Positions 8,155 to 12,681 of a stretch of DNA of 64,000 bases are shown in pieces. Location of the stretch: NCBI GenBank assembly GCA_010093815.1, contig ML996566.1; one strand, given 5' to 3'. The stretch is from Pseudovirgaria hyperparasitica (Eukaryota). Made by a program: the position numbers and the translations under genes. Position 1 is the stretch's first letter; each line of letters starts with the position of its first letter. The notes under the pieces were generated by a model that was given only the letters and a program-made list of their open reading frames with translations, did not search any database and was not told where the DNA came from.

Positions 8155-10596
8155 CTATTTTTCAGAAGGCTCCTCGACTTCGGTCGGCTGCACCGGCTCA
8201 CTGTCGGCATCCTTCATCTCCTCGTCCTTTGGTGGTGGCTGCTCGGCAGCCTTCTTGGCCTCTTGCTCAGCCCGTTTGGCGGCTGCGGCCTCTTCTTGGG
8301 CTTTCAGTTTGGCCTGTCGCTCTTCTTCAATCTTGTCATTATAGCGCGTGATGATAGTAGCAGCAGACGCCCGAATCTCTTCGGCTTTGCTGATATAGAC
8401 AGCTTTGGACGCGTCCTCTCCGTCTTCATATAGCCAGTCCTGAAAGCAGGTTAGTAAGTCATAGAATGACAAGAGGATAGGAATATTACCTCAGTGGCCT
8501 CTAACTTGGCTTTGACTTTTTGTTTCTCCTCCTCACTTGCAAATTCAGCGTACTGCTCGTCAAGCTTCCCTCTTAACTCATAGATGAAGCTCTCAAGATC
8601 ATTCTTTTGTTGCTCGGTATCGGCGACAAGTTTATCTTCCATGAACATCTGGCTTTCTTTCTCCAATGCAGCGTCTTTCGATGCTTGATCCAGAGACAGG
8701 GTTTGCGCCGTCACAGGTAGCTCACCTTTCCGTACCTGTTTCCTGACCTTCTTTGTCTTGGGCTTTTCGTCAGTCTCCATCTTATCACCCTGATTCAATG
8801 TTAGCTGGGGTAAAGTAACAGGGATGTAAACATCAGAATCAGGAGTATAATCGGATACCTCCGCACGCTTCGTAAACTTCGGATTACGGGGAGAGTCTAC
8901 TGGAGGAGATGTTCTCTGACGCTTCATCGAAGAATCGAAAGTTGAGGACTTGACAGGAATTGAATCGCGCTGGAAAGAACTGGTTGTACGTACTTCGGTC
9001 TTCTCGCCTTCCTTAGGCTCTGGAATGGGCTCCTCAACTTCTTGATCCTCAACGTAATAGCCTTGCTCTACATTGAGAACACCATTGAGGTTCAAACGCG
9101 CTTTAAGTTTACAGATCATGAAGTCGTCTTTAGAATCAGCTTGAACACCTTTGACGGTGAAGTTGCCAATCCAAGGATTTAACTTGCCAGGCAACTGATC
9201 CGGTTTGGCATATTTGGCCTCAAGAGCGAAGGGCTGTTTGCGATAGAATGTGAGGATCTTCGTCGAAGGCATGGTGTTACCCTTGTTGAATACTGTAAGG
9301 CTGGTGTCTTCGTCCGGGATATCGGGAGACTTCTCCCAAGCAAACTCAACGGGGTATGAGACAACATCGTGGATGGAAAAGTCGCGCACACGGAATACGG
9401 GTGATAGGATGGCACAGCTGAAGGCAGAGCCACGCGCAACAGCCTCATCCTGATTGAGGGTGAAGGACAGCGCTTTACCGAAGAAGTTCTGGATGGCTGT
9501 TTTCAGTGCGGGAACACGGGTGCATCCACCGACCATCTCGATGCCGTCAATATCCTCAACTTTAAGCTTTGCGTCCGCCAGGGCCTGCTCGATTGGTCCA
9601 GTAGCGCGTTCAAGAAGTGGTTTGACCAGTTCTTCTAATTCCTCACGCTTTAAGAAGCCTCTGACATCAACGTCATTCATGACCGATTCGATGTTGATCG
9701 GTGCCAACGCATTGGCTGAAAGAATCTTTTTCAGCTTCTCGCAAGCTGCTGCCACTCGCACTTTGGCCTTAGCATTCTCGTTGATATCAATCTTGAACTT
9801 CTCCTTGAACTCTTTGGCAAAATGATCTACAAGTGCCTTGTCGAAGTTCCTGCCGCCAAAGTGGCGGTCCCATGCCGTAGCTTTTACGGTAAGCTCACCC
9901 TTCTTGAACTCTACGATAGCACAGGTGTAGTTGCTATGACCTATGTCGATGAAAGCGACCCTGCGCGGCTTCTCCTCTGGTGGAGGTAAGTCAGTCTTCG
10001 TGATACCATAGCCAAGAGCGGTGGCAGTTGTCTCATTAATGATGCGCAAAAGCTTCAGTCCAGCGATGTCGCAAGCGTCTATCAGAGCCCGTCGCTGGGA
10101 GTCTGTGTACCACGCGGGACAGCTGAGTACGAGGTCGGGATTCGCATTCTTTGTGTCGGCATATGCGGTATTCTTAAGTTTGGTGAGGAACATTGCCACG
10201 AGTTGAGTGGCAGTGAACCTTTGCTTTTGACCCAGGTATGTGACTTCCGCACCGACTTGCCCGTCCATCTCTACCAAAGGCGCACCAACATATTGCTGCT
10301 CAAGCTGGACATCGGGATCGTTGAATGGACGCCCAGCTAATCGGCTAAGTGAGCTAACGGTGTTCTTGAGGTTGGAAATCTCTTGAGTTTTTGCGGGCTC
10401 GCCTAGATATCTGCTCTTTGGGCCGAAGCCTACGAGCGACCTGTCGATGTGTCAGTGAGGGAAAGTGGTATGTAATAGCCTGTACATACGGTGTAGCACG
10501 ATTAGAAACTTCATTTGTGATCACGTCTACACCGCGATTCCTGGCTACGGCTATGACCGTGTTTAACGTCCCCAAATCTATACCAACAACACTCAT
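8155..10596 (-). CDS. hsp88: Hsp110-family chaperone / Hsp70 nucleotide exchange factor (Hsp88/Sse1)
   Basis: [43 protein letters not shown] and [11 protein letters not shown]. Introns 10441-10489, 8790-8993 (in frame, possible alternative donor at 8858) and 8440-8489. Stop TAG at 8155-8157. Confidence 0.97.
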
Positions 10597-11385
10597 TTTC
10601 GAGATGCAATCAGTCGTAAGAAGTAGAAGTGGGAGGATTGCGTTCGGTACGGGTAGAAGATTGAGGCTGTGGTGGGTGTTTTAAGAACTGAAGTGGGTGC
10701 GAGAAGTTGCGATGAGGGATAGGTGTTGACAGAAAAGACTTTGTTCGATAGCTGCGAGGCTGTCCACCGAAATATTCGGAAACCACCAGAAACTACGACT
10801 TGTGCCACACTGTGGCTGGTGCGCAAAGATGCCCCGCGTCGTGCGCCTCTGGCAGATCCGGATGGATGCCCGCTTGTTCAGTGTTTTTGTCTCCCGCTTG
10901 GCAGTCTCAATTTAGAAAAGATTATATGACGGATTTCATTGTGACCTGCTTTTGAGTGCTTGAGCACATCAAGTCATAAATGTCGAGGTGAGCTTCAGCG
11001 CATGGTCCAAGTACTGATATAGTGATAAGGGAACACAATATGCGGGGAGCTGGCCTGAAAGCAATCCGAATACGCTGGACATCGTCTGCTTTTCACGGAA
11101 TTGCCATCTACTCCACCGCGCGGATTATAATCGCATGAAACTCACTGAATCTGTAAAGACGAGCCGTGCGTCCGTGGACAGCTATCCGTACCTTTGGTAC
11201 ACATACACATACCTAGGTACATACCTGGGAAAGAACCTTGCGACCTCAGTTGTCTGCGCCAATCGACAACAGTAAGTTACGTCAGCCACGCCAAGCCGTA
11301 GATCATAACATACAATTACCCAAGAAGCACTGCTAAATAGCCTCCCGTCGCGTTGTTTTGCGCAGGTCAATTCCTTCAGCACCTA

Positions 11386-12681
11386 ATGGATGCAGTCCCG
11401 CAGTACCCTCTATATGGCTCGACATTTAATGTGTACAGCATATCTCCTTTATACCACGGTCGTTCGCAACTGCTCCTCGATGCAAGCTTACGATCGCATG
11501 CGCGACGACTGCGCAATGTGCTAAAGGGAGACACCCTCCGTGGTGTGCACATCGGTGTCGCAGCCACGGATAATGCAATAGCAAACCTCGGACCTCTAGA
11601 AAGCTGTACATGGGATCTGATAGGCGACGAGGCATCATGGGAAGAGACACACGCAAGCGACGAGCACGACGAAATGTCGGACGATCTTGCGCCTGGTGGA
11701 AAACCTATATCTCCAGAAGTAACCCGTGGAATACATATTCAACTGCAGTACTTGCAGACAACGCATACAGGACTACTCCTAAGAAACCCAGCGAGCAAAC
11801 CACCTCCGAATGGGTTCACTTCAATGCCACTTCTACTCCTCCGCATGCCACAGCCCGTCCGCGAAGTCGTGCTAGAATACCTCACCACCACATTCGATAC
11901 CAGAATCTCTCCCCTGAAGTTTCGTTCAGAGTTTCTATTGTCGTCACTCGAGTCTCTCCTCGCCCACATCACCGATCATGAATCGCCAGAGACTATACCA
12001 GACATTGTAAAACCACTTCAGATTCAACTCGCGTTTCCACAATTTACACAGTACGTCAAGCATATCGATATTACAATAGCAAGAGACGACTTGCACGAGT
12101 TTGTTTGCCGAGGGCAACAATTGAACGCCGGCTCCAACGCGCCTCTCACTACAGCGTTGGAGCTTTACCTCTCATCTCACCTAGCCCTCGACACGAAGTA
12201 CATTCGTTCTGGCATATCGAAGGCTATCTGTGGCCTCTTCGCGCTTTCATCAGAGGGCAAATTGAAGCTTTTTGCGCCTGCACCAAGGTCATCCGACACC
12301 TCAGAAGACGAACGCGACACACTTTCACCTTCTGCGTCACAATTGTTTATGCGAGACTTCTACAGCCGCTTGGTTTCCGAAGCTTCAACGCCCCTTCAGC
12401 TACTATCCTCCACAATTCCAGGCGCGAAGGCGAAGGAACCGAGTAGGCCGGCACCTCGCAGGAAGCGTGAAGCGACGACTGATGTAGAGAATGGTGCAAA
12501 GCAGCGGAGACCTCAGGCGCGCGTACAGGATGACGAGCTTGCCGACGCAAACGACGCTCATACCGTGCGCAGCACAAACACACCAGCGAGACTCAGTGTG
12601 CCTGTAGATCCGCCGCCACCATACGAGCTCCATGATCCCGCACGGTCGCAGCGGGCGGGGTCGCAACCAGGACCAGCGTGA
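11386..12681 (+). CDS. fta1: Kinetochore Sim4/CCAN subunit Fta1 (CENP-L)
   Basis: N-terminal PLYGSTFNVYSISPLY and internal MPLLLLRMPQPVREVVLEYLTTTFDTRISPL match recalled CENP-L/Fta1 motifs. First in-frame ATG at 11386. Confidence 0.75.
   Translation: MDAVPQYPLYGSTFNVYSISPLYHGRSQLLLDASLRSHARRLRNVLKGDTLRGVHIGVAATDNAIANLGPLESCTWDLIGDEASWEETHASDEHDEMSDDLAPGGKPISPEVTRGIHIQLQYLQTTHTGLLLRNPASKPPPNGFTSMPLLLLRMPQPVREVVLEYLTTTFDTRISPLKFRSEFLLSSLESLLAHITDHESPETIPDIVKPLQIQLAFPQFTQYVKHIDITIARDDLHEFVCRGQQLNAGSNAPLTTALELYLSSHLALDTKYIRSGISKAICGLFALSSEGKLKLFAPAPRSSDTSEDERDTLSPSASQLFMRDFYSRLVSEASTPLQLLSSTIPGAKAKEPSRPAPRRKREATTDVENGAKQRRPQARVQDDELADANDAHTVRSTNTPARLSVPVDPPPPYELHDPARSQRAGSQPGPA

Follow-up and report, generated by a model that had tools for sequence, protein, structure and literature searches.

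The 64,000-nucleotide (nt) stretch of contig ML996566.1 analyzed here (hereafter, the window) comes from Pseudovirgaria hyperparasitica, a Dothideomycete of the order Acrospermales. On its minus strand, at positions 8155-10596, it carries a gene with four exons and three introns that encodes Hsp88, a chaperone of the Hsp110/Sse1 type, and the second intron of this gene is the subject of the present work. The name Hsp88 was adopted because the open reading frame (ORF) read through this intron (P0001) is 100% identical, over residues 440-600, to the deposited 780-amino acid (aa) [quoted passage not shown]. The identical deposited protein and every listed relative have PF00012 as a precomputed domain, and the N-terminus encoded by exon 1 agrees with that of the orthologs (MSVVGIDLG...). 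In a structure-sequence search, residues 5-350 matched many structures of the nucleotide-binding domain (NBD) of Hsp70. The closest solved structure, yeast Sse1 (3c7n_A), was aligned over chain residues 40-515 with the product of exon 2 at E = 9.1e-179, far ahead of the canonical Hsp70s (~1e-70), and the protein is therefore an Hsp110/Sse1-type co-chaperone; nucleotide exchange on Hsp70, a property of this subfamily, would be expected of it by membership. Both the beta-sandwich domain and the helical lid were aligned, query residues 5-482 with Sse1 chain residues 40-515 and query residues 561-654 with chain residues 518-611. The acidic loop of the beta-sandwich domain is present as well (a 19-aa stretch aligns with EDIEVEEPIPLPEDA of Sse1), and intron 2 is located at the end of this loop, between chain residues 515 and 518; a preliminary description of this stretch of DNA had likewise placed it in the acidic loop.

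Intron 2 is a GT-AG intron whose first nucleotide is the G at 8993 (GAA/GTACGT) and whose last is the G at 8790 (CAG). Recomputed on the minus strand, it is 204 nt long, divisible by three and in phase 0, with no stop in frame 0, four in frame +1 and three in frame +2. The encoded peptide, including its two basic clusters, KRQR (8924-8913) and KFTKR (8879-8865), is exactly the one quoted in the preliminary description, and the other elements named there, an internal GAG/GTATCC (G at 8858), CTAAC at 8804-8800 and the CAG ending at 8790, were all located. The intron had also been described as longer than most introns in the window; the comparison made here covers the other two introns of the gene, of 49 and 50 nt, and for these the statement holds. 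In a blastn search against the 64-kb window, intron 2 matched itself only, apart from matches of 17 nt or less. A repeat or introner-like element was considered and discarded, no second copy being present within the window. For intron 2 alone, the chance of an open frame is ~0.017 (0.05 of 5000 shuffles were stop-free, multiplied by 1/3 for the length), and KR.[KR] appeared in 0.011 of the shuffles. These odds are unusual yet not decisive for a single intron; the comparative data described below make them decisive.

Removal of the intron was directly observed. One contig each from the runs X3, X4 and X1 (three runs from two studies) skips exactly the 204 nt. The X3 contig (depth 949) and the X4 contig (depth 2387; sample shared with X3) show no other differences from the window and skip the introns of 49, 204 and 50 nt, and the 243-nt X1 contig, from the other study (depth 2.2), makes the identical 204-nt skip, likewise with no other differences; the X2 contig spans only 9588-9845, outside intron 2. 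That the X3, X4 and X1 contigs are derived from RNA we infer solely from the exact removal of GT-AG introns, the kind of library not being on record. Because the contigs of three runs join exactly across intron 2, the main mRNA is spliced, which bears out the predicted use of the distal junction 8993>8790. The dominant mRNA thus lacks intron 2 and encodes a 712-aa protein (10596-10490, 10440-8994, 8789-8490 and 8439-8155, 2139 nt in total; 780 minus 68 aa), and the deposited 780-aa read-through model is not the main product, given that the contigs show the 712-aa form. The features of the gene are listed in Table 1.

Table 1. The Hsp88 gene of Pseudovirgaria hyperparasitica: exons, introns and elements of intron 2 (positions in the window)
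Feature	Position	Strand	Properties and evidence
Exon 1	10490..10596	minus	ATG at 10596-10594; X3 and X4 contigs join 10490 to 10440
Intron 1	10441..10489	minus	49 nt, phase 2, GTATGT..CAG; does not preserve the frame; absent from X3 and X4 contigs
Exon 2	8994..10440	minus	ORF; nucleotide-binding domain and most of the beta-sandwich substrate-binding domain, to the acidic loop
Intron 2 (in-frame intron)	8790..8993	minus	204 nt, phase 0; 68 sense codons; spliced out of the dominant mRNA; proposed to be retainable
Intron 2 donor GTACGT	8988..8993	minus	Contig junction; in-frame reading V-R
KRQR	8913..8924	minus	AAG CGT CAG AGA; intron-2 copy of K-R-x-K/R, resembling the core of a classical monopartite nuclear localization signal
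KFTKR, second basic cluster	8865..8879	minus	Sequence; intron 2
Internal GTATCC	8853..8858	minus	"Second donor" of the preliminary description; most likely a chance in-frame GT
Branch-point consensus CTAAC	8800..8804	minus	11 nt upstream of the acceptor G; in-frame reading L-T
Intron 2 acceptor CAG	8790..8792	minus	Contig junction; in-frame reading Q
Exon 3	8490..8789	minus	Final beta-strands and beginning of the helical lid; Sse1 chain residues 518-611 in the alignment
Intron 3	8440..8489	minus	50 nt, phase 0, GTAATA..CAG; does not preserve the frame; absent from X3 and X4 contigs
Exon 4	8155..8439	minus	Sequence and contigs; stop TAG at 8157-8155

In an alignment of 18 relatives, many contained an insert at the site of intron 2 that started with V (a GTN donor) and ended with L-T....Q (CTAAC and CAG). 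The corresponding site was then located by flanking anchors in metagenome contigs carrying fungal Hsp88 loci; the 80 loci used are the best among 311 confirmed matches. An intron is present at the site in 66 of these loci and absent in 14, and the 66 intron-bearing loci collapsed into 42 clusters at 97% identity (43 with the window's own intron). The intron length is a multiple of three and the frame is free of stops in 37 of the 42 clusters, compared with the 2.88 expected from shuffling; the five broken clusters are L062, L067, L068 (with L069, L070 and L074), L071 and L079. When the splice signals were stripped, the 43 representatives fell into 23 families unalignable by blastn (22 from metagenomes and the window's own), of which 18 are open throughout and five broken (binomial P = 3.9e-17 at p = 0.07). 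The two other introns of the same genes served as controls. For intron 1, 8 of 25 clusters are divisible by three and none is open (median length 53 nt), and for intron 3, the respective counts are 12 and one among 30 clusters (median 52 nt), compared with 39 divisible by three and 38 open among the 43 clusters at the site of intron 2. Here the median length is 147 nt, about three times that of the gene's other introns, the 204 nt of the window's intron being the longest, and within related groups, the lengths step by multiples of three (for example, 132, 147, 150 and 153 nt). Chance is excluded as the source of the open frames because the control introns of the same genes behave as chance predicts. 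In one group, L068-L070 and L074, a 164-nt intron with two stops has a broken frame while clade neighbors keep open introns of 144-153 nt, which looks like a recent loss of coding constraint.

The splice signals themselves are conserved in a form compatible with translation. The donor is GTACGT in 16 of the 43 clusters and one of GTACGT, GTGAGT or GTAAGT in 42, and CTAAC or CTGAC occupies the equivalent place in all 38 open introns, resulting in a conserved "LT" in the encoded peptide. The acceptors are CAG (35 clusters), AAG (6) and TAG (2). TAG, which would be read as a stop, is found solely in frame-broken introns, that is, in none of the 38 open introns compared with 16 of the 55 control introns. 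AAG, read as K, occurs in six clusters that group with Leotiomycetes (L012, L014, L017, L019, L023 and L076), and the spliced relative L077 has an exon junction like that of this AAG-acceptor group. Five loci (L002, L007, L010, L032 and L050) are contiguous at the intron 1 site and keep the in-frame intron, and three of them (L002, L007 and L010) also keep intron 3; the missing intron 1 could reflect either loss of this intron or partly processed RNA.

A short basic motif is conserved in many of the encoded peptides. Of the 38 open clusters, 29 have KR.[KR] in frame 0, none has it in frames +1 and +2, and one, three and one have it in the three reverse frames; the mean over shuffled introns was 0.54, and the highest value reached was 4. 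K and R are each encoded by alternative synonymous codons (AAA/AAG and CGA/CGT/CGG/CGC/AGA, respectively), with eight K-R codon pairs among 30 copies of the motif, and because these codons change synonymously, the constraint acts on the peptide. Frame, openness and motif are thus conserved at the protein level. In 16 of the 29 clusters, the motif is preceded by "AA", so that its usual form is A-A-K-R-x-K/R; typical readings are EPAAKR[RHF]KPS, RAAKRPRLG, ERPAKRAKIE, ESKRPKI, PVKRRKLSS and NPKRRRKSS. Among 29 Leotiomycete-type inserts, the columns conserved at 80% or more are V-S (the donor), K-R-x-R-L and L-T (the branch point), and no others. The picture is one of a putative short linear motif embedded in a linker that is probably disordered. 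The bulk of the insert evolves at a ratio of nonsynonymous to synonymous differences (pN/pS) weakly below 1, and the sole clearly coding-like group is group B, with pN/pS of 0.41 and 16, 6 and 21 variable sites at the three codon positions. The control introns show neither confinement of the motif to one frame nor avoidance of TAG.

In the intron of P. hyperparasitica, KRQR has the K-K/R-X-K/R composition of a classical monopartite nuclear localization signal (NLS) core and lies in a loop segment predicted to be exposed and disordered. The predicted structure of the 780-aa form is poor overall (mean predicted local distance difference test score, pLDDT, 53.7; predicted template modeling score, pTM, 0.28), and in this model, residues 507-602 are coil with pLDDT below 50. 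Several of the orthologous readings (EPAAKR[RHF]KPS, RAAKRPRLG, ERPAKRAKIE and PVKRRKLSS) are close, by eye, to proven NLSs in the tabulated part of PMC2817886 (Table 1 of that paper), namely, PAAKRVKLD of c-Myc, VSRKRPRP of polyoma large T and PPAKRAR of the hepatitis delta virus (HDV) antigen, whereas SSMKRQRTS of the window is a weaker match. The nearest relative, P0003, has KRSR at the place aligned with KRQR. The expectation that the basic clusters would be conserved in orthologous introns is borne out for K-R-x-K/R, as counted above, and fails for KFTKR, which shows no conservation outside the closest relatives, the aligned residues being KHPRH in P0003 and SKRSN in P0004. In the region of 8895-8924, a 13-aa stretch of the window's peptide resembles KRADVSPPTESPA in P0004, and AEVSD of the window is identical in P0003; by sequence, this likeness to P0003 and P0004 is clade-specific conservation beyond the core motif. 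The proposal that the SP sites next to the basic clusters tune the module through phosphorylation was not supported: [ST]P up to 12 aa away from the motif is not enriched, with 16 of 29 clusters having it and 13.0 expected. Exon 3 encodes a basic stretch of 14 aa that is present in the protein with or without intron 2. A bipartite NLS composed of the motif and a downstream KPKTRKVKK was rejected, the spacing varying by eye from ~23 to ~40 aa between groups. Three proteins, P0142, P0175 and P0200, have short, open inserts of 24 aa that are hydrophobic (e.g., ...ILLFILQFILLTYFQ), with the frame kept and the basic motif gone.

Inserts at this site are widespread in deposited proteins. In a sample chosen without regard to the intron, 120 proteins ranked by the upstream exon alone and not deduplicated, a first count gave 79 open inserts, 30 proteins without an insert and 11 missed by the downstream anchor; inspection of the latter identified five open, two without insert and four broken or ending in the intron, for totals of 84, 32 and four, respectively. 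Across all fetched proteins, 174 carry an insert, with 159 distinct inserts of 14-101 aa. The carriers include Mytilinidion, Lophium, Bathelium, Trypethelium, Pycnora, Acarospora, Clarireedia, Botrytis, Sclerotinia, Monilinia, Blumeria and many lichen fungi. In two species, models of both lengths are deposited. In Clarireedia jacksonii, two models from a single contig, one of 713 aa and the other, "variant 4", of 748 aa, differ solely by a 35-aa insert, with no mismatches, and in Blumeria hordei, 711-aa and 744-aa models differ by a 33-aa insert; both pairs are deposited gene models. The public models are inconsistent in general: many Leotiomycete and lichen models include the insert, and their neighbors do not. 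The insert in combination with removal of both other introns occurs only in deposited gene models, nine in one set and 27 in another, one of the 27 (P0270) being a repeat expansion rather than the intron.

A FastTree phylogeny of exon-2 translations (75 rows; rows shorter than 250 aa were dropped) splits into a Lecanoromycete-plus-Leotiomycete half and a Dothideomycete half. The open-plus-motif state is found in both halves, and the loci showing it adjoin named members of three classes, Dothideomycetes, Leotiomycetes and Lecanoromycetes. This tree requires a minimum of 11 transitions between open, broken and intron-less states, and the nesting of broken or absent introns among open ones looks like repeated loss. 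Spliced forms are scattered over the same tree. L077, with all three sites joined, adjoins L012, which has an open 111-nt intron, and since this neighbor has all sites joined, the spliced form exists in the L012 group; a spliced Cenococcum model adjoins the read-through locus L005. Full-length, insert-free proteins are also encoded in contigs of 2.4-2.9 kb.

Exitrons are in-frame, stop-free introns inside coding exons that are alternatively retained, first described in Arabidopsis and human. Intron 2 of Hsp88 shares with them canonical splice sites, coding flanks, a length divisible by three, the absence of stops and constraint at the protein level, and it is a genuinely spliced intron. It differs in that, in P. 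hyperparasitica, only the spliced form is seen in contigs, and the conservation of one such intron over three fungal classes is unusual. The term is hardly used for fungi: among the matches listed, no paper was, by title or abstract, on a fungal gene. As comparisons of sequences, the present data require selection on a translated, intron-containing mRNA, and they suggest a second, probably nuclear, form of Hsp110. We therefore favor, with a probability of roughly 0.6, the reading that intron 2 is a conserved, exitron-like translatable intron, the retention of which adds an NLS-like peptide to the acidic loop of Hsp110. Under this reading, a fraction of the transcripts would keep intron 2 and be translated into a longer Hsp110, and the NLS-like motif in the extra loop would be recognized by importin, which would mediate import of the chaperone into the nucleus. 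The balance between short and long forms would depend on the splicing efficiency of the long intron, possibly lowered by heat or other stress; the length of the intron and, in Leotiomycetes, the weak AAG acceptor would favor retention, and the internal GT at 8858 would have no role. We infer that P. hyperparasitica retains the intron in some transcripts, that the long form is translated and imported into the nucleus, and that stress controls the process; the last point in particular is a guess modeled on mammalian Hsp105 beta. The preliminary description had seen in the intron an NLS-like module and a candidate for a splice-controlled isoform; frame, openness and K-R-x-K/R indeed proved to be conserved far beyond chance, whereas the second donor on which its three-isoform model relied found no support. 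It had counted against its own model the combination of a sole 204-nt junction with orthologous introns that lose the frame and the basic motif; only this junction is found in the contigs, but most of the orthologous introns keep both.

The family precedent for such an arrangement is Hsp105 alpha/beta (HSPH1), and the mechanistic precedents are exitrons and fungal dual targeting by RNA processing. Mammalian Hsp105 alpha and beta arise by alternative splicing and differ by ~43 aa, one being cytoplasmic and the other nuclear and heat-inducible, according to the part of PMC4771732 concerned with these isoforms. Both cases involve the Hsp110 family, and two forms from alternative splicing are proposed for the fungal one as well, the putative long form being read from sequence. 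The preliminary description invoked this precedent, and it holds as regards splice isoforms that differ in localization; the polarity is reversed, because, on the same account, the shorter form, beta, is nuclear in mammals, whereas in fungi the longer form would carry the NLS-like motif, and the mammalian form is alternatively spliced, whereas retention of the whole intron is proposed for the fungal one. The sole Hsp105 chain found among the structure matches (6gfa_A, 381 aa) covers the NBD alone. Peroxisomal dual targeting by alternative splicing has been reported for fungi. In the relevant portion of PMC4207609, alternative RNA processing or stop-codon readthrough is described as adding cryptic peroxisomal signals to housekeeping enzymes, with conservation across fungi. 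The proposed likeness, within the scope of that portion, is that a small fraction of an abundant cytosolic protein acquires a short targeting signal; the differences are that the peroxisomal signals are C-terminal PTS1 tripeptides, compared with an internal basic motif, and that the destination presumed here is the nucleus. SKI7/HBS1, in the section of PMC3597508 that deals with it, is a rare alternative splicing event in fungi conserved over very long times; it resembles intron 2 in this conservation and differs in that, on the account given in that section, alternative splice sites give rise to two proteins of distinct function, rather than intron retention to a localization variant. In the literature searched (exitrons, Hsp110/Sse1 splicing and fungi), no description of the retention of intron 2 of Hsp88/Hsp110 was found. 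The excerpted part of a Trichophyton paper (PMC6830096) mentions an hsp88-like gene for its expression only, and the main texts of splicing papers on Sclerotinia (PMC7749757) and Cladosporium (PMC11694984) do not describe the event; in the portion of the Sclerotinia supplements concerned, two HSP70-family genes have two isoforms each, which could not be matched to the Hsp88 ortholog or to this event.

Several observations weigh against the favored reading. No contig of P. hyperparasitica retains intron 2, with the proviso that contigs drop minor forms, and among the proteins fetched, no contig-derived one combines the insert with joining at both other intron sites. The motif is far from universal: KR.[KR] is absent in 9 of the 38 open clusters and present in just 91 of the 159 distinct inserts among all fetched proteins, and the window's own copy, SSMKRQRTS, lacks the A-A context. 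Most of the insert is near-neutral, pN/pS being 0.73 in group A, 0.67 in group C, 0.77 in group G and 1.2-1.4 in three groups of two sequences. The lichen-type (Lecanoromycete) inserts mostly lack K-R-x-K/R and have another conserved motif. Frame is lost in 5 of the 23 families, and 14 of the 80 loci are intron-less at the site, two of these on contigs of 185 kb and 37 kb; because of these losses, the feature must be regarded as dispensable in some lineages. The sampling was not neutral either, given that the query for the loci contained the insert and the protein samples consist of the hits nearest to the queries, with Sordariomycetes and Eurotiomycetes not clearly covered in either; were every unseen locus broken, the open families would still be far above chance, and it is the true frequency that is uncertain. 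Finally, NLS function, importin binding and stress control of the long form are predictions from sequence and by analogy. The motif shared by the lichen-type inserts is approximately K-[LV]-K-G-[LI]-F-K-D-x-Y-A-x-x-K-R-[TS]-F, found in the loci L027, L029, L033, L035 and L073 and in the proteins P0294, P0298, P0303, P0306 and P0309.

A stronger form of the favored reading is that intron 2, long and prone to retention by design, is an ancient, splicing-gated switch that predates the split of Dothideomycetes, Leotiomycetes and Lecanoromycetes and that slowed splicing, for example, during heat, leads to an NLS-bearing nuclear Hsp110; we consider it tentative and, on balance, doubtful. A search for the heat-shock element TTCnnGAAnnTTC, allowing one mismatch at most, gave 23 hits in the window, where 20.3 would be expected, and no hit in the interval from 10600 to 11340. 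Upstream of the gene, the X3 and X4 contigs span 10597-11500 without a gap, from the 5' region of Hsp88 into a divergent neighbor (a plus-strand ORF from 11341), and the same contig records extend 2.3-3.1 kb beyond; the divergent genes may have overlapping or abutting transcripts.

Among the alternatives to a targeting function, one that is unlikely and still deserves serious attention is that of a fail-safe intron, whereby mRNA left unspliced under stress would still give a working chaperone with a harmless insert in the loop, the motif having some other role or none. Heat shock inhibits splicing, and the gene in question encodes a heat-shock chaperone; the loop evidently tolerates length variation, with inserts ranging from 14 to 101 aa and near-neutral in bulk. 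However, no open frame is maintained in intron 1 (open in 0 of 25 clusters) or in intron 3 (1 of 30), so that fully unspliced mRNA would still be broken, and the protein-level conservation of A-A-K-R-x-K/R with synonymous codon change would be left unexplained.

The three-isoform model (+0, +45 and +68 aa) of the preliminary description, in which a donor at 8858 is also used, removing 69 nt and leaving a +45-aa form with both basic clusters, now appears improbable. GAG/GTATCC is in frame and would have its branch point and acceptor in common with the full intron, and AEVSD recurs in the read-through ORF of P0003, so that a GT should be present there too (P0003 being known from its protein). 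However, no contig joins 8859 to 8789, and the hexamer lacks the +5 G and +6 T of 42 of the 43 real donors. Neither did the expected conservation in orthologs materialize, an internal consensus donor, GT[AG]NG[TC], being found in only 2 of the 43 introns. Intron 2 contains 12 internal GTs, the one at 8858 among them, and with five of these in frame, one at a plausible distance is expected by chance.

Still less probable are two readings that take the conservation as real and explain it otherwise. The first, that the conserved element functions as RNA or DNA (for example, as a splicing enhancer or a structural element) rather than as a peptide, draws on the facts that introns can carry conserved regulatory RNA elements and that the motif sits mid-way in a long intron; it has little chance against the synonymous differences in the K and R codons between lineages, including the eight codon pairs, and against the maintenance of frame, the absence of stops and the avoidance of TAG acceptors, all of which are constraints on translation. 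The second, which we rate as equally remote, is that the segment is constitutively coding in most species and its removal in P. hyperparasitica is the exception. The presence of the insert in nine named models of one set and up to 27 of another would fit this view, but a donor is present in all 43 clusters and a CTAAC or CTGAC branch point with an AG acceptor in all 38 open ones, and spliced forms are found in distant lineages (this organism, L077, the Cenococcum model and the insert-free proteins from contigs of 2.4-2.9 kb). Least credible of all is an ordinary, constitutive intron with an open frame and basic clusters by chance, the deposited read-through models being annotation errors: the contigs show the spliced form only, and a chance of ~0.017 is not negligible genome-wide, but 37 of 42 clusters are open against 2.9 expected, as are 18 of 23 unalignable families, the motif is found in 29 of 38 clusters against 0.54 in shuffles, and the control introns match what chance alone would give.

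In filamentous fungi, retained introns are largely regarded as noise or as a means of directing mRNA to decay. If the favored reading, that of a conserved, translatable intron, is correct, intron 2 of Hsp88 would be among the clearest functional, protein-coding retained introns in fungi, with frame and motif kept across three classes. In practical terms, the Hsp88 of P. hyperparasitica is deposited as the 780-aa read-through form, while the 712-aa form is the main product in RNA-derived contigs. For the family, retention of the intron would be a possible way to supply an abundant cytosolic co-chaperone of Hsp70 to the nucleus, parallel to Hsp105 alpha/beta. Should the more tentative switch also prove true, it would bring the capacity for Hsp70 nucleotide exchange and disaggregation into the nucleus under stress and would have converged on the same outcome as the nuclear, heat-induced Hsp105 beta of mammals, by intron retention and with the opposite polarity.

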